From Jatrophihabitans sp. (GTDB taxonomy: Bacteria; Actinomycetota; Actinomycetes; Mycobacteriales; Jatrophihabitantaceae): a stretch of 64,000 bases of DNA. This document shows, one piece after another, positions 41,246 through 60,349 of this stretch. Each line of letters begins with the position of its first letter. The stretch's first letter is position 1. The stretch lies in contig DATJNU010000042.1 in the NCBI GenBank assembly GCA_035507775.1, positions 405-64,404 of the forward strand. The letters are read 5' to 3'. The position numbers were made by a program, and so were the translations under genes. Under the pieces are notes generated by a model. It was given only the letters and a program-made list of their open reading frames with translations. It was not told the DNA's origin and searched no databases.

Positions 41246-41321
41246 GCCGGCGTGGCGCAATTGGTAGCGCACTCGACTTGTAATCGAGCGGTTCGGGGTT
41301 CGAGTCCCCGCGTCGGCTCCA
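41246..41321 (+). tRNA. tRNA-Thr (anticodon UGU), CCA encoded
   Basis: Hand-folded 76-nt cloverleaf: acceptor GCCGGCG/CGTCGGC (one G-U), D arm GCGC-AATTGGTA-GCGC, anticodon arm CTCGA-CTTGTAA-TCGAG, variable loop CGGTT, T arm CGGGG-TTCGAGT-CCCCG, discriminator T, CCA. Confidence 0.9.
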
Positions 41322-55747: not shown

Positions 55748-56001
55748 GTGCTCCCCCCGAGCTGTCCCGCCGCATGCGCCGACGCCGTCGCGGCGTGGCG
55801 CCAACGGCGCGGACTCCTCGCTCTACCGGCACGGTAACCGGCACCGGTCCGGCTGCGGAAGCGGCGAGGTGCCGGAGTTGCTCCCTCGGTGAGCGATCGG
55901 CCGGCCGGCGCGCCGGGTATATGCTTGCCGATAGGCAACTATCTGGACGTCGCGAGCCGACTGCGGGGAGCGGCGCGGTGCGACATGGTGAGGGAGCGAC
56001 G

Positions 56002-56451
56002 ATGCCGAACGAATTCCACCCCGACGAGGTCGCCCGGCTGCGGATCGCGCTCGCCCGGATCGCGCGGGTGGTCGACCGGGCCTCCGCCGACGCCGGCTTC
56101 ACCAGGACCCAGCTCTCGGTGCTGGGCTCGGTGGTGCGGGTGAAGGAGATCGGCCTGGGTGAGCTGGCCGAGGTGGAGGGCTTGAACCCGACCATGCTCT
56201 CCCGGGTGGTCGGCAAGCTCGAGGTGGCCGGCCTGATCACCCGCTCGTCCGGCGTCGAGGACCGGCGCGCGGTGCGGGTGCGGCCGACCGCCACCGGCCG
56301 CGCGCTGCACCTCAGGCTGCGCACGCGGCGCACCGACCTGCTCGTCCGCCAGCTGGCCGCGCTGCCGGACGGGCTGGCGGCCGACCTGCTCACCGCGCTG
56401 CCGGCGCTGGAGGCCCTCGGCGACCAGCTGCATGCCGGATCGTCGCGATGA
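56002..56451 (+). CDS. MarR family transcriptional regulator
   Basis: ATG 56002, 149 aa: FTRTQLSVLGSVVRVKEIGLGELAEVEGLNPTMLSRVVGKLEVAGLITR...DRRAVRVRPTATG. Confidence 0.85.
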   Translation: MPNEFHPDEVARLRIALARIARVVDRASADAGFTRTQLSVLGSVVRVKEIGLGELAEVEGLNPTMLSRVVGKLEVAGLITRSSGVEDRRAVRVRPTATGRALHLRLRTRRTDLLVRQLAALPDGLAADLLTALPALEALGDQLHAGSSR

Positions 56452-57776
56452 CGGTGCCTCGGCTGACCCGGCAGGCCTTCGCCGGCCTCGGCCGGCAGAC
56501 CTTCGCGTCCCTGGCCAACCCGAACTACCGCAGGTACTTCCGCGGCCAGGCGGTGTCGCTGGTCGGCACCTGGATGCAGACCGTGGCCCAGTCGTGGCTG
56601 GTGCTGGAGCTGACCGGTTCGGGCACCGACCTCGGCGTGGTCGTGGCGTTGCAGACGCTGCCGGTGCTGCTGCTCGGGCCGTACGGCGGCGTGGTGGCCG
56701 ACCGGATGGACAAGCGCCGGCTGATGATCGGCCTGCAGTCGATGATGGGGGTGCTCGCCGCGGTCCTGGCCGTGCTCACCCTCACCGACGTCGTGCGGCT
56801 GTGGCACGTCTACCTGCTGGCCTTCCTGCTCGGTCTGAACAACTGCTTCGAGAACCCGGCCCGCCAGTCCTTCGTGCTCGAACTGGTCGGCCCGGCGGAC
56901 CTGCGCAACGCGGTCAGCCTCAACTCGGTGCTGGTCAACGTGGCCCGCGCGGTCGGCCCGGCGGTCGCCGGCGTGATCATCGCCGCCGGCGGTCTCGGCA
57001 TCTGCTTCCTGCTGAACGCGGTGAGCTTCGTGGCCGTGGTCTGGTCGCTGGCGACCCTGGACACCGCGGCGCTGCAGCAGGCACCGCCCGCGGCCCGGGC
57101 CAGGGGGCAGCTGCGGGAGGGCCTCGGCTACGTCCGGCGCAGCCCGCGGTTGGCGATTCCGCTGCTGATGATGGCGATCGTCGGTTGCTTGGCCTACGAG
57201 TTCCAGGTGACCCTGCCGGTCGTGGCCAAGCAGACCTTCCACGGCGATGCCTCCAGCTACGGCTTCATGACGGCCGCGATGGGGGCCGGCGCGGTGGTGG
57301 GCGGGCTGTACGTCGCGGCCCGCGGCCAGACCGGGGTGCGCTCGCTGGTGCGGTCGGCCGCGATGTTCACGGTGGTGCTCACCGCGGCCACCCTGGCGCC
57401 GACGCTCTGGGCCGAACTCGTCGCGCTCGCGCTGGTGGGCGCGGTGAGCGTCGGCTTCCTCTCCAAGGGCAACAGCACCCTGCAGCTGGAGGCGAGCCCG
57501 CAGATGCGCGGCCGGGTGATGGCGCTCTGGGCGGTGGCGTTCCTCGGTTCCACGCCGATCGGCGGCCCGATCGCGGGGTGGGTCAGCGAGACGCTCGGTG
57601 GCCGGGCGGGCCTGGCGCTGGCGGCGCTGGCCTGCGCGGCGGCGGCCGTGCTCGGGGAACTGACGGTGCGGCGGCTCGAACGCCGGCCCGCCGCGCTCGC
57701 CAGCCGCCCGGCAGCGGTGGTCGTGGCCGAGGACGACGCCGGGGTTGCCCTGTCGCGGCGGGACATTCGTCGCTAG
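56448..57776 (+). CDS. MFS transporter (EntS/MFS_3-like efflux type)
   Basis: ATG overlaps the MarR stop (ATGA). 442 aa with about 12 TM spans: FRGQAVSLVGTWMQTVAQSWLVL...GGVVADRMDKRR. Confidence 0.88.
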   Translation: MTVPRLTRQAFAGLGRQTFASLANPNYRRYFRGQAVSLVGTWMQTVAQSWLVLELTGSGTDLGVVVALQTLPVLLLGPYGGVVADRMDKRRLMIGLQSMMGVLAAVLAVLTLTDVVRLWHVYLLAFLLGLNNCFENPARQSFVLELVGPADLRNAVSLNSVLVNVARAVGPAVAGVIIAAGGLGICFLLNAVSFVAVVWSLATLDTAALQQAPPAARARGQLREGLGYVRRSPRLAIPLLMMAIVGCLAYEFQVTLPVVAKQTFHGDASSYGFMTAAMGAGAVVGGLYVAARGQTGVRSLVRSAAMFTVVLTAATLAPTLWAELVALALVGAVSVGFLSKGNSTLQLEASPQMRGRVMALWAVAFLGSTPIGGPIAGWVSETLGGRAGLALAALACAAAAVLGELTVRRLERRPAALASRPAAVVVAEDDAGVALSRRDIRR

Positions 57777-57847
57777 CGTGAGAGCGGGTCGAACAGAGGC
57801 TCTCATCCCGACGGCGGCCTGGCTGCCATTCGACGAGGAGTAACGAG

Positions 57848-58093
57848 ATGACCGAGACCGAAGGACCTGCCGACAGTGGAGCCGAGGGTGTGCCGGGCCA
57901 GCACGACGGCGGCGCGGACGGCGGTGCCGAGGGCCCGGCCGACGGCGGCGCGAACGGCGTTCCCGGTGAGCACGACGGCGGCGCGGACGGCGGCGCCGAC
58001 GGCGGTGCCGAGGGCCCGGCCGACGGTGGTGCCGATGGCGGGGCGGACACCGCTGCCGGCCAGCACGACGGTGGCGCGGACGGCGGCGCCTGA
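57848..58093 (+). CDS. 81-aa acidic Gly/Ala/Asp repeat peptide with three (Q/E)HDGGADGGA boxes
   Basis: ATG 57848 lies 7 nt after GAGGAG. Third codon positions are strongly G/C. It contains no Cys, Lys, Arg or aromatic residues. Repeats: VPGQHDGGADGGAEGPADGGANG / VPGEHDGGADGGADGGAEGPADGGADGGADTAAG / QHDGGADGGA. Confidence 0.55.
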   Translation: MTETEGPADSGAEGVPGQHDGGADGGAEGPADGGANGVPGEHDGGADGGADGGAEGPADGGADGGADTAAGQHDGGADGGA

Positions 58094-58167
58094 GCGCTGA
58101 CCAGCCGGTCGTCGGGGCCGGTCCGGGCAGCGCGCCCGCGGCCGGCCCCGGTCACCGGCCCGCCGCG

Positions 58168-59382
58168 GTGCTGCCCCGGTGTGTGGGGGTCCCGGCCGGC
58201 ACGTTCGCGGCGGAGGTCTGGTCGCGTCGGCCACTGCTCACCCCGGCGGCCGACAGCGGTGCCGATTTCACCGACCTGCTCTCCCTCGCGGCGGTGGACG
58301 AGCTGCTCTCGCGCCGCGGCCTGCGCACGCCGTTCATCAGGATGGCCAAGCAGGGCACGGTGATTCCGGCCCGCGAGTACACCCGTTCGGGTGGCCAGGG
58401 CGCCGGCGTCGCCGACCAGGTCGCCGACGACCAGGTGCTGCGGCTGGTGGCCGACGGCGCGACGCTGGTGTTGCAGGGGCTGCACCGGCTGTGGCCGCCG
58501 CTGATCGAGTTCGGCGGCCGGCTGACCGCCGAACTCGGCCACCCGGTGCAGATCAACGCCTACCTGACCCCGCCGCTGAACCAGGGCTTCGCGCCGCACT
58601 ACGACACCCACGACGTCTTCGTGCTGCAGGTCGCCGGCCCGAAGCGCTGGGTGATCCACCCCCCGGTGCTGGTCGATCCGCTGCCCGGCCAGGACTGGGA
58701 GAAGCACCGGGACGCGGTCACCGAACGGGCCGCCACGCAGCCGCTGCTGGACGTCGTGCTGCAGCCCGGGGATGCCCTCTACCTGCCCCGCGGATTCGTC
58801 CATTCCGCCATGGCACAAGGCGAAACCTCACTGCACCTGACGGTGGGCGTGCACCCGGTCACCCGGTACCGGCTGCTGCAGCAGTTGCTCGCCGAGGCCG
58901 CGGACGAGCCCAGCCTGCGGGCGTCGCTGCCGGTCGACCCGGCGATCGGCGGTGCGGAGCCGGCGCTGGAGTCGTGGCTGGCCGGCCCGCTGGCCGACAC
59001 CGTCGCGGCCTTCACGACCTTCGCCGAGGGCCCGCGGCTGCCCGGCGTGGCGGCCCGGCTCGCCGACGAGCTGGCCGGCGCTACCCGGCCGGCGCCGATC
59101 GAGCCGCTGGCGCAGCTGGCCGCGCTGCAGGCACTGGGCCCGGAGTCCACCTTCCGGCTGCGGGCCGGGCTGCGGGTGCGGCTCGACCGGTCCGGTGCGG
59201 GGATCCGGCTGCGGGCGCTGGGAACCACGCTCGACCTGGCACCGGCCACCGAGCCGGCGCTGAAGCCGGTGCTCGCCGGGGAGCCGGTGTGCGCCCGTGG
59301 CCTGCCCGGCCTGGCCGGGCCCGAGGCGCTGGAGCTGGTGCGCAGCCTGGTCACCGCGGCGGTGCTGGTGCCGGTTGACTGA
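58168..59382 (+). CDS. JmjC/cupin_4 family Fe(II)/2-oxoglutarate-dependent oxygenase (ribosomal-oxygenase-like)
   Basis: 404 aa with facial-triad context GFAPHYDTHDVFVLQVAGPKRW (H-x-D) and GDALYLPRGFVHSA (distal His). The C-terminal helical/winged-helix-like part is typical of the family. Confidence 0.8.
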   Translation: MLPRCVGVPAGTFAAEVWSRRPLLTPAADSGADFTDLLSLAAVDELLSRRGLRTPFIRMAKQGTVIPAREYTRSGGQGAGVADQVADDQVLRLVADGATLVLQGLHRLWPPLIEFGGRLTAELGHPVQINAYLTPPLNQGFAPHYDTHDVFVLQVAGPKRWVIHPPVLVDPLPGQDWEKHRDAVTERAATQPLLDVVLQPGDALYLPRGFVHSAMAQGETSLHLTVGVHPVTRYRLLQQLLAEAADEPSLRASLPVDPAIGGAEPALESWLAGPLADTVAAFTTFAEGPRLPGVAARLADELAGATRPAPIEPLAQLAALQALGPESTFRLRAGLRVRLDRSGAGIRLRALGTTLDLAPATEPALKPVLAGEPVCARGLPGLAGPEALELVRSLVTAAVLVPVD

Positions 59383-60349
59383 CCGGTGCGCCCCGGCCGC
59401 CCGGGTCCGGGGTGACGAGATGCTCGGCACCGCCTTCCCCGCCGGCCGGCTGTTGCTGGTCGAGCAGCTGGGCGGCTGGGGGCTGACGGGAGTCGGCGGC
59501 AGCCGGTTCGACCAGCGGATCGCCGGCCGGCTGATCCGCGAGCTCGGCAGCCAGGGCGTCCGGGTGCTGGCCGTGCGCCGGCCCGGTCGCAGGCCTGCGA
59601 CGGCCGTCCGCCGGTGGGCCGTCGCCGACTGCCGGGCCGGGCGGGCGTCACTGGCCTGGGGCGAATTCGAGACGGAGGCCGACCTGCTCGGCCTCGACCC
59701 CGACCTGCTCGGCCCAGACCTGCTCGGCCCAGACCTGCTCGACCCCGACCGCGCCCCCGACTCCGCGTACCCCGACCCCGACTCCGCGTACTCCGACTCC
59801 GACTACTCCGACTCCGACTCCGGCCTGCCGGCCACCCGGCCGGTCTATCTGGTCTGCACGCACGGCAGGCACGACGTGTGCTGCGCCGTCGAGGGGCGGC
59901 CGGTGGCGGCGGCGCTGGACCGGCTGTGCCCCGACCGGGTCTGGGAGTGCAGCCACGTCGGCGGCGACCGGTTCGCGGCCAACGTGCTGGTGCTGCCCAC
60001 CGGCCAGCTCTACGGCCGGGTCACCGATCCGGCGGCGCTGGTCGGCGCCACCGAGGCCGGCGAGGTGCTGCTGGCGAACCTGCGCGGCCAGATCGGGGTG
60101 CCGCCGGTGGTGCAGGCCGCCCTCGCACACGCCCAGCGGGTCCTGGCCGTCCGCCGGCCCGGCCGGCTCCGGCCGCTCGGCGTGACCGGCGAACCGCCGC
60201 TGCAGCAGGTACGCCTGGCGACCCCGTCCGGCGCCTGCACCGTGTCGGTGGAGCGGGTCACCGGCGACGCGGCCCGGCTGACCTGTCGCGCCACCGCCGA
60301 CCGGGTGCCGATCGGCTACCGGCCGGTCTCGCTGGTGCTGGCGGACTGA
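59375..60349 (+). CDS. sucrase/ferredoxin-like (thioredoxin-like Fe-S) family protein with internal repeat insertion
   Basis: Family motifs VYLVCTHGRHDVCCAVEG and CSHVGGDRFAANV are present. The family N-terminus (RC..A...GD.MLGTA......LLVEQ.GGWG) requires a start upstream of ATG 59420. TTG 59375 (8-nt overlap with the oxygenase gene) or ATG 59297 are candidates. Confidence 0.7.
   Translation: MTDRCAPAARVRGDEMLGTAFPAGRLLLVEQLGGWGLTGVGGSRFDQRIAGRLIRELGSQGVRVLAVRRPGRRPATAVRRWAVADCRAGRASLAWGEFETEADLLGLDPDLLGPDLLGPDLLDPDRAPDSAYPDPDSAYSDSDYSDSDSGLPATRPVYLVCTHGRHDVCCAVEGRPVAAALDRLCPDRVWECSHVGGDRFAANVLVLPTGQLYGRVTDPAALVGATEAGEVLLANLRGQIGVPPVVQAALAHAQRVLAVRRPGRLRPLGVTGEPPLQQVRLATPSGACTVSVERVTGDAARLTCRATADRVPIGYRPVSLVLAD

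Follow-up and report, generated by a model that had tools for sequence, protein, structure and literature searches.

What can a short, acidic and highly repetitive open reading frame (ORF) mean when it lies directly in front of an oxygenase gene? This question is raised by a locus of Jatrophihabitans sp. (NCBI GenBank assembly GCA_035507775.1, contig DATJNU010000042.1), of which a stretch of 64,000 nucleotides (positions 405 to 64,404 of the forward strand), called the window in the following and having a G+C content of 72.6%, was analysed. On its plus strand, between positions 57848 and 60349, three genes follow one another: a small ORF encoding an acidic, DGGADG-repeat microprotein of 81 residues (57848..58093, from ATG 57848 to the TGA that ends at 58093), the gene of a JmjC (JmjC_2/cupin_4) oxygenase, and the gene of a Suc_Fer-like protein, i.e., a protein of the thioredoxin-like ferredoxin family. 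The three are called the cassette here. It was proposed in an earlier note on this DNA that the repeat peptide is the dedicated substrate of the oxygenase, with its His-Asp boxes being hydroxylated and the third protein acting as a redox partner. As discussed below, comparison with related genomes indicates that the small ORF is a real gene, conserved at the protein level and linked to an oxygenase of the ribosomal oxygenase (ROX) type, while the substrate role is put forward as a tentative reading.

The first point to settle is whether the small ORF is a gene. One genome per GTDB species was scanned with an alignment of the JmjC protein, and the best 80 of the 591 stretches that encode a relative, with JmjC identities of 50-69% to the window protein, were taken as the sample of loci. 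Enough sequence upstream of the JmjC gene is present in 78 of the 80, and in all 78 a DGGADG-repeat ORF lies directly 5' of the JmjC gene on the same strand, so that the co-occurrence called for in the earlier note is indeed found; a Suc_Fer-like ORF adjoins the JmjC stop in 73 loci. Among the 68 intact copies of the small ORF, which also underlie the composition and motif counts given below, 67 start with ATG and 46 are preceded by a Shine-Dalgarno (SD)-like motif. In the window this motif is the GAGGAG reported before, read directly at 57835..57840 (plus strand), 7 nt 5' of the ATG. In an ENA assembly the small ORF is called as a gene. Moreover, in alignments made at the DNA level with no protein guidance, the mismatches at codon positions 1, 2 and 3 of the small-ORF frame number 1546, 1916 and 4563, respectively, and 596 of the 815 internal gaps are multiples of 3.

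It is noted that base composition is of little help here. The strong third-position G/C bias that had been claimed for the small ORF proved to be weak: its G+C contents at the three codon positions are 0.915, 0.671 and 0.805, while the third-position value (GC3) is 0.93-0.97 in the neighbouring genes and is higher in the +1 frame than in the small-ORF frame itself. Because GC3 is only 0.805 and another frame is higher, composition alone leaves the frame undecided. This low GC3, together with the finding that several further frames across the repeat are also open in many loci, is what speaks for the rival view that the small ORF is open by chance in GC-rich repetitive DNA, or that the real gene is its mirror ORF on the minus strand, either being unrelated to the oxygenase. 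By contrast, that view is opposed by the retention of the ORF in every testable locus, by its nearly uniform ATG start, by the third-position-biased substitutions and the in-frame indels, and by the stop-start coupling to the JmjC gene on the sense strand. In addition, the antisense frame whose third positions coincide with those of the small ORF (the APPS frame) contains stops in 20/68 loci, and the antisense frame that is nearly always open would put its third positions on the least variable sites. The mirror ORF is thus ruled out by the APPS-frame stops and the substitution pattern, the sense ORF being the translated frame, and the rival view as a whole is, on these comparative data, already refuted, with a probability close to negligible. 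Because of the synteny in 78/78 loci, the third-position substitutions, the in-frame gaps and the sense-strand stop-start coupling, the small ORF is, on the comparative evidence, a real and conserved gene.

What does the gene encode? The three (Q/E)HDGGADGGA boxes described before are present in the window protein, where Lys, Arg, Cys, Phe, Tyr and Trp are all absent, and its module can be written EGPADGGA-x-G-x-PG-x-H-DGGADGGA. At the DNA level, Tandem Repeats Finder (TRF) detects a tandem repeat at 57891..58090 (plus strand), in which an 81-nt (27-residue) higher-order unit, present in 2.5 copies, is built from 12-nt units (DGGA), present in 11.8 copies. In the wider family the hexapeptide DGGADG is invariant, often within EGPADGGA...PG-x-(H/Q/S/G)-DGGADGGA, with the exact hexapeptide counted in 227 run-initial boxes across the 68 proteins, while the copy number is strongly variable, from 4 to 23 DGGA-type units per ORF. 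The proteins are 55-148 residues long, consist of 38% Gly, 19% Ala and 18% Asp with no Cys, and their net charge has a median of -18. At the N-terminus, 55 of 74 copies carry the motif M-x-L-x-DDD-[IM]-[TR]-[TS]; the window protein has the variant N-terminus MTETEGPAD. An AlphaFold2 (AF2) prediction gives a mean confidence (pLDDT) of 51 and no secondary structure, and the small protein is therefore predicted to be intrinsically disordered; a folded repeat structure such as a beta-roll was dropped on the same grounds. Neither Pfam nor NCBIfam scans of the small protein give a family match.

Searches with the small protein found 79 and 290 homologues, of which the best 79 and 120 were listed, and they independently recover the cassette in Streptomyces, Salinispora and Aeromicrobium; among the genera that carry it are Amycolatopsis, Streptomyces, Salinispora, Aeromicrobium, Ornithinibacter, Leifsonia and Phytohabitans. 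The listed homologues have 54-176 residues, show no Pfam domain and go under the names "hypothetical protein" or "BatC protein". No fusion of the repeat with a JmjC domain occurs among them, and a long homologue (P0116) that was considered as a natural fusion of this kind was rejected, its repeat having been read in the wrong frame. Note also that the public records P0133, P0171, P0354 and P0378 carry the "BatC" label; a literature search for the name returned only unrelated contexts, and the label appears to be an annotation artefact of low-complexity sequence. In several loci from metagenome-assembled genomes (MAGs; L016, L025, L027 and L037) the repeat ORF changes frame part-way, e.g., DGGAARRWRSRR, which is most likely due to assembly or indel errors in the 12-nt repeats.

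The second gene (58168..59382, plus strand) encodes 404 residues if started at GTG 58168 and 430 residues if started at CTG 58090. The description of its product as a cupin_4/JmjC oxygenase with an intact H-x-D...H triad is borne out at three levels. Firstly, it matches Pfam JmjC_2 (PF08007) with an E value of 1.5e-27 and 96.1 bits (cut-off 22), with Cupin_8 also matched. Secondly, the codons of the Fe(II) triad, His 58597-58599, Asp 58603-58605 and His 58801-58803 (plus strand), align with H340, D342 and H405 of NO66, and the Lys of an AGPKRW motif lying between the triad residues aligns with NO66 K355; the four residues (H139, D141, H207 and K154) are invariant in the 16 homologues of alignment A1. 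In JmjC_2 enzymes the conserved Lys binds the C5 carboxylate of 2-oxoglutarate (2OG). Thirdly, the AF2 model (pLDDT 81.2, predicted template modelling score, pTM, 0.74) is matched by Foldseek over its full length to NO66 (TM score 0.67, E 2.7e-24, about 455 columns) and then to MINA53 and YcfD, and a phmmer search of the PDB ranks the same proteins in the same order (NO66 1.1e-20, MINA53 7.7e-15, YcfD 2.8e-7), with the sequence identity to NO66 being about 23%. The predicted architecture comprises, at full length, a JmjC domain, a helical domain and a C-terminal winged-helix domain, and a JmjC domain with a helical dimerisation domain and a C-terminal winged helix is the architecture that defines the ribosomal oxygenases (PMC6006756). 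From sequence and model, the enzyme is thus assigned to the NO66/MINA53/YcfD type of ROX, with a complete predicted Fe(II)/2OG site. The substrate His of NO66 is held by the dyad of Tyr328 and Ser421 (PMC9994133); the counterpart of Tyr328 is conserved (INAYLTPP, invariant Y127), while that of Ser421 is an invariant Gly (HLTVGVH).

A further feature of the enzyme is an invariant Gly/Asp-rich loop, TRSGGxGAGVADQVADD (58381-58431, residues 72-88 of the 404-residue form), which resembles the microprotein repeats in composition and in which the pLDDT falls below 50 at residues 72-76 of the 399-residue model. This loop could serve as a flexible lid or mimic a substrate, as a pseudo-substrate segment.

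How are the genes connected? The JmjC gene is not offset uniformly in frame from the small ORF: the offset is 2 in 50 loci, 0 in 24 and 1 in 4, which in many cases is accounted for by stop-start overlaps or near starts at the junctions. Thus, in 23 of the 40 clean offset-2 loci the small-ORF stop overlaps a start in the JmjC frame (GTGA, ATGA, TTGA or TGATG), and most of the offset-0 loci have an ATG or GTG 1-16 nt past the stop; the frame switches in the MAG loci noted above account for some of the rare offset-1 cases. The gene-called JmjC start lies at such an overlap in Streptomyces and a few bases from the stop in Aeromicrobium and Salinispora. A CTG alone overlaps the stop in the window and in 16 other loci. 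The window junction (58090..58167, plus strand) has the JmjC-frame CTG at 58090-58092, overlapping the TGA at 58091-58093, and an open JmjC frame from there to GTG 58168, the first canonical start past the CTG; this segment may extend the JmjC protein at its N-terminus or serve for reinitiation. L002, the closest GTDB relative, lacks any canonical JmjC start ahead of the conserved ALxRC motif, and many JmjC homologues are called at 419-439 residues, for which reason the window protein may have 430 residues rather than 404. The loci with only a CTG over the stop and the lack of a canonical start in L002 suggest a CTG start or termination-reinitiation. The gap of 74 nt between the two genes that had been stated earlier therefore holds if GTG 58168 is the start, but it is not typical of the relatives, most of which have the JmjC start overlapping the small-ORF stop or directly abutting it. 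In the junction spacer G is enriched at JmjC-frame codon position 1, yet GC3 is only 0.70-0.80.

An internal SD for the JmjC gene is not enriched in the 3' end of the small ORF (12/68, compared with about 15.5% expected), which would be compatible with reinitiation. A -1 frameshift that fuses the small ORF to the JmjC gene was considered and rejected, since inspection finds no slippery heptamer at the junction and the canonical overlapping starts in the relatives make a frameshift unnecessary. At the second junction, the overlap of the JmjC stop with the probable start of the Suc_Fer-like gene was correctly recognised before: TTG 59375 overlaps the stop (59380-59382) by 8 nt in the window, and in 47/73 loci a start of the Suc_Fer-like gene overlaps the JmjC stop by 4-8 nt. 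Because of the stop-start overlaps at both junctions, the sequences suggest that in most loci the three genes form a translationally coupled unit.

These junctions also bear on an alternative in which the small ORF is mainly a translated upstream ORF that feeds the JmjC start by termination-reinitiation and so sets the expression of the JmjC and Suc_Fer-like proteins, with the peptide being secondary. The overlapping or abutting starts in most loci, the lack of a canonical JmjC start at the junction of the window and L002, and the lack of SD enrichment 5' of the junction would all be expected from it. On the other side, a length of 55-148 residues together with protein-level motifs (DGGADG, EGPADGGA and the N-terminal DDD[IM]T in 55/74) exceeds what a coupling device needs, and no terminator-like or attenuator-like structure and no Rfam element was found in the cassette region. 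Moreover, coupling and a functional product can coexist. We consider this alternative improbable.

We now come to the function of the microprotein. Based on the above, we propose, with slightly less than even confidence, that the small protein and the JmjC enzyme are a dedicated enzyme-substrate pair, with hydroxylation at multiple sites in the repeat boxes. This reading is preferred because DGGADG is conserved in variable copy number, the co-occurrence is universal, the small protein is always a separate product, and CzlI and BipG, described at the end, provide a precedent. As judged from the sequences, a strictly kept DGGADG in variable copy number is more in keeping with repeated sites of modification than with a fixed structural subunit.

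Which residue would then be modified? The "exactly three His-Asp boxes" on which the earlier note built its proposal are a feature of this genome only, with box numbers varying widely elsewhere. His is present in 44 of the 68 small proteins and absent in 24, Pro is present in 57, and the residue that precedes DGGADG can be G, H, A, S, Q or R. Moreover, when 15 loci whose partner has at least 2 HDGGADG boxes were compared with 25 His-less loci, the two groups not being separate clades, 0 JmjC columns were found to discriminate between them. Because it is missing in 24/68 small proteins and is tracked by no JmjC column, His was rejected as the conserved target. The earlier idea of His-Asp box hydroxylation is thus supported only in part: the pairing of repeat ORF and ROX enzyme is conserved, whereas the His is not. 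Asp is the sole reactive side chain that is found in every homologue, and DGGADG is invariant; should the microprotein be the substrate, C-3 hydroxylation of Asp would be the most economical proposal.

The proposed mechanism is as follows. The microprotein would serve as a dedicated multi-site substrate, in whose x-DGGADG boxes the hydroxylase would install C-3 hydroxyls, with Asp as the most likely conserved target and His as a possible additional site where it is present, as in the window. The acidic N-terminal motif might be a docking element, perhaps for the winged-helix domain of the enzyme. The product would be a hydroxylated polyanion that is kept inside the cell and that may bind metal cations or switch its interactions in dependence on O2, Fe and 2OG. 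The Suc_Fer-like protein, with its CX8C...HX3(D/E) motif, may be an iron or redox partner that keeps the iron of the oxygenase reduced or loaded. The most far-reaching form of the proposal is that a ROX enzyme has been recruited to a coupled, non-ribosomal substrate, giving a poly-beta-hydroxy-Asp (and His) polyanion that acts as an intracellular metal buffer or as an O2/Fe/2OG-responsive switch, with the Cys2-His-Asp thioredoxin-like iron-sulfur protein as an obligate partner; this form we regard as possible and rather doubtful.

Several points weigh against the enzyme-substrate reading. The relation between enzyme and substrate is drawn from synteny and coupling only, and tight translational coupling is equally typical of the subunits of a complex. 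We know of no precedent for Asp hydroxylation by an enzyme of the ROX clade. The requirements of the enzyme are a further point: 2OG oxygenases need no electron donor, which makes the redox role of the Suc_Fer-like protein speculative, and in the Micromonosporaceae loci the Suc_Fer-like gene is missing from beside the JmjC gene. His is absent in those 24 small proteins and followed by no JmjC column, and in place of Ser421 of the His-binding dyad of NO66 there is the invariant Gly, although Tyr328 is kept. Finally, the characterised ROX enzymes act on basic ribosomal proteins with narrow selectivity (PMC9994133).

In the main rival explanation, the microprotein is a partner and not a substrate (it might inhibit the enzyme or act as a pseudo-substrate, be a subunit that solubilises or that mimics nucleic acid, or donate Fe(II)), while the JmjC enzyme hydroxylates a ribosomal protein, as YcfD, NO66 and MINA53 do. 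With this explanation, the complete ROX architecture with NO66 as the closest structure, the presence of His with no co-variation in the enzyme, and the location of the cassette in core housekeeping regions (ppa, dacB, tilS and menaquinone genes; see below) rather than in biosynthetic islands would be easily understood; the stop-start coupling suggests co-production, as is the case for subunits, and one Streptomyces locus lies beside a cluster of alternative ribosomal proteins. By contrast, stoichiometric subunits and simple polyanions normally keep their composition rather than their sequence, and a DGGADG that is kept exactly while its copy number varies several-fold would be unusual for either. 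It also speaks against this explanation that the Ser of the NO66 His-binding dyad is lost and that no ribosomal-protein gene is conserved beside the cassette in the neighbourhood analysis of the GTDB loci. We thus regard the partner role as a real but rather unlikely possibility, and the enzyme-substrate pair is retained as the preferred reading.

The third gene (59375..60349, plus strand; probable start TTG 59375, alternative ATG 59420) encodes a protein that matches Pfam PF06999 with an E value of 5.9e-18 and 66.1 bits (cut-off 34.9), the match covering only profile positions 94-168 of 191. Its putative cluster-ligand motif, CX8C...HX3D, as defined by conservation in 73 homologues, lies at Cys 59855-59857, Cys 59882-59884, His 59954-59956 and Asp 59966-59968 (plus strand). 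C146, C155 and H179 are conserved in 73/73 homologues, and position 183 is Asp in 57, Glu in 14 and Cys in 2; further invariant residues are His148, His151, Cys154 and Cys289. The family motif of the thioredoxin-like [2Fe-2S] ferredoxins is CX8CXnHX3H (PMC8482512), and the HX3H part of it is thus not present here. In a library-wide search, the position of the second ligand among the best 150 cluster representatives is occupied by 104 Asp, 19 His, 11 Cys and 8 Glu. Hence the conserved Cys/His motifs mentioned in the earlier note are there as regards CX8C and the first His, but not as regards the second His of the bis-His [2Fe-2S] proteins; because this His is replaced by Asp, Glu or Cys, the protein is, as read from its sequence, a variant of the bis-His type. 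A PDB sequence search with it gave no meaningful match.

It is noted that the Suc_Fer-like gene of the window contains an acidic tandem-repeat insertion at 59679..59822 (plus strand), in which TRF detects 15- and 21-nt units (DLLGP / DSAYPDP / SDSDY). The insertion is not conserved in the 73 homologues, with the conservation blank at residues 88-135, and it therefore looks like a recent in-frame repeat expansion.

Would the hydroxylated product be exported? A peptide gene that adjoins a tailoring oxygenase in 78/78 loci brings to mind the peptides that are made on ribosomes and modified after translation (RiPPs), and it may be supposed that the cassette makes an exported RiPP-type metallophore, with the repeat peptide being hydroxylated, cleaved and secreted, e.g., via the transporter encoded next to the cassette in the window. 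Beta-hydroxy-Asp and beta-hydroxy-His are metal ligands in siderophores, which counts for this supposition. In the window the cassette is directly preceded by genes for a MarR regulator and an MFS_3 transporter, an EntS-like "transmembrane secretion effector" (55774-57776); the two overlap by 4 nt (ATGA 56448-56451), and 71 nt separate the end of the transporter gene from the small ORF. However, this MarR/MFS_3 pair is found upstream only in the window and its closest relative, L002. Clustering of the neighbouring ORFs, which took in the 80 GTDB loci together with L001 and L082-L085, gives a different picture of what is conserved, with housekeeping genes only: upstream a UbiE/MenG-type methyltransferase and a radical-SAM menaquinone gene, and downstream an inorganic pyrophosphatase (ppa), a D-Ala-D-Ala carboxypeptidase (dacB) and tilS. 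No conserved protease, exporter, RiPP recognition element (RRE)-type protein or further tailoring enzyme appears in this clustering. No signal peptide is evident in the listed small-protein sequences, and the repeat length is very variable. As to a division of the peptide into leader and core, the acidic N-terminal motif of 55/74 copies and the predicted winged-helix domain of the enzyme may be mentioned, but the window protein has the variant MTETEGPAD. The housekeeping neighbours and the lack of a conserved protease, exporter or tailoring enzyme speak for an intracellular function in the core genome and make an exported RiPP product less likely. The "RiPP-like" reading of the earlier note accordingly finds no support, and the metallophore alternative is judged improbable.

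The 3' neighbours in the window, on the opposite strand, are genes for a NUDIX hydrolase, an MFS transporter, a luciferase-like oxidoreductase and an aldo-keto reductase. Of these, the NUDIX hydrolase gene (minus strand) converges on the Suc_Fer-like gene (plus strand), with an overlap of 34 nt between their 3' ends (60316-60349), and the NUDIX neighbour is retained only in the closest relatives L002, L003 and L005. In the whole window the sole Rfam match at the gathering threshold is a tRNA gene at 41246-41318.

The loci with a cassette span Jatrophihabitans, Nakamurella, Cryptosporangium, Actinokineospora, Cellulomonas, Actinoplanes, Geodermatophilaceae and Solirubrobacteraceae. The JmjC clade itself comprises more than 6000 sequence clusters at E<=1e-10. 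A complete cassette is also present outside Actinomycetota, in a MAG labelled Candidatus Velthaea (Vulcanimicrobiota; L077, JBEKHC010000121.1), which could reflect horizontal transfer or a binning error. In Streptomyces sp. NPDC059398 (L082, 1-8305) the cassette stands directly after a cluster of S14, L28, L33, L31 and S18 genes with a CobW_C gene; the cluster resembles a Zur-type zinc-starvation cluster, and this adjacency is seen in one locus only. A link of the cassette to Zur and zinc was considered from this locus and rejected, the sole Zur-like box (with 3 mismatches) lying between the L28 and L33 genes and none lying in the 345 nt 5' of the small ORF.

The cassette touches the question of the physiological role of the bacterial ROX-type JmjC hydroxylases, for which, to our knowledge, one activity has been characterised, namely Arg hydroxylation of uL16. 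It ties a large actinobacterial ROX clade to an overlooked microprotein family, annotated as "hypothetical" or wrongly as "BatC", and to a variant thioredoxin-like iron-sulfur-type protein. If the proposed pair is true, the microprotein would be the first dedicated substrate of a bacterial ROX, its modification would be the first multi-site Asp hydroxylation of a bacterial protein, and hydroxylation would yield a polyanion of hydroxy acids that is made on the ribosome and has a possible metal-binding or oxygen-sensing function. The cassette also offers a cheap way to test for a new substrate class of protein hydroxylases. Moreover, the small ORFs would constitute a new family of translated small genes in high-GC genomes, where such genes are usually missed, and they provide a worked example in which gene calling by composition is ambiguous and the frame is settled by comparative genomics.

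Finally, we compare the cassette with known systems. Full-text searches of the literature found no description of the cassette or of the microprotein repeat, in agreement with the earlier note, whose author knew of no described system with this architecture, and the passages on bacterial JmjC neighbourhoods in Iyer et al. 2010 that match the search terms do not mention it (PMC2938197). The three-gene unit and the partner microprotein family are thus undescribed, whereas JmjC systems that hydroxylate proteins or peptides are already known.

Of these systems, the ROX enzymes (NO66/RIOX1, MINA53/RIOX2, E. coli YcfD/RoxA and Rhodothermus YcfD) share with the window enzyme the JmjC_2 match, the HxD...H triad, the Lys, the predicted architecture and Tyr328. 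Their ribosomal targets are an Arg of uL16 and a His of uL2 and of uL15, and we know of no ROX that has a co-encoded, translationally coupled partner. Unlike them, the window enzyme is firmly linked to an acidic repeat microprotein and to a Suc_Fer-like protein, has Gly in place of Ser421 and is only about 23% identical to NO66, while the known ROX enzymes each act on a single residue of a basic ribosomal protein that is encoded elsewhere (PMC6006756).

The Apd1/Aim32-type thioredoxin-like [2Fe-2S] ferredoxins share with the Suc_Fer-like protein the PF06999 match and CX8C, from which the cassette protein differs by Asp or Glu for the second His, by the extra invariant residues and by the coupling to JmjC. 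FIH-type JmjC enzymes hydroxylate Asp, Asn and His. FIH with ankyrin repeats and AspH with EGF domains as substrates are alike in concept to the proposed pair, in that Asp, Asn or His in a repeated substrate motif is hydroxylated at C-3 by a 2OG oxygenase; AspH is mentioned in PMC9994133. FIH is only a distant Foldseek match of the JmjC model (E about 1e-7, TM about 0.25-0.28), and both FIH and AspH modify repeat domains that are folded, with no operon linkage, whereas the substrate proposed here is a disordered, operon-linked microprotein.

A parallel in gene arrangement is provided by CzlI (curacozole, Phe hydroxylation of CzlA) and BipG (biphenomycin, an ornithine hydroxylase), which are JmjC-type Fe/2OG enzymes acting on co-encoded peptides (PMC11575548, PMC12707348), with the CzlI gene lying directly beside its precursor gene (PMC11575548). 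As in the cassette, an oxygenase of the JmjC subfamily and the gene of a small ribosomal peptide stand in one cluster. By contrast, the CzlI and BipG clusters also carry cyclodehydratases, radical S-adenosylmethionine (rSAM) enzymes or oxidative enzymes that depend on multinuclear non-heme iron (MNIO), proteases and transporters, whereas the cassette has no other conserved tailoring enzyme, protease or exporter. Moreover, CzlI is YxbC-like, while the cassette enzyme is ROX-like, and the putative precursor of the cassette is a tandem-repeat polyanion of 55-148 residues in a core-genome context.

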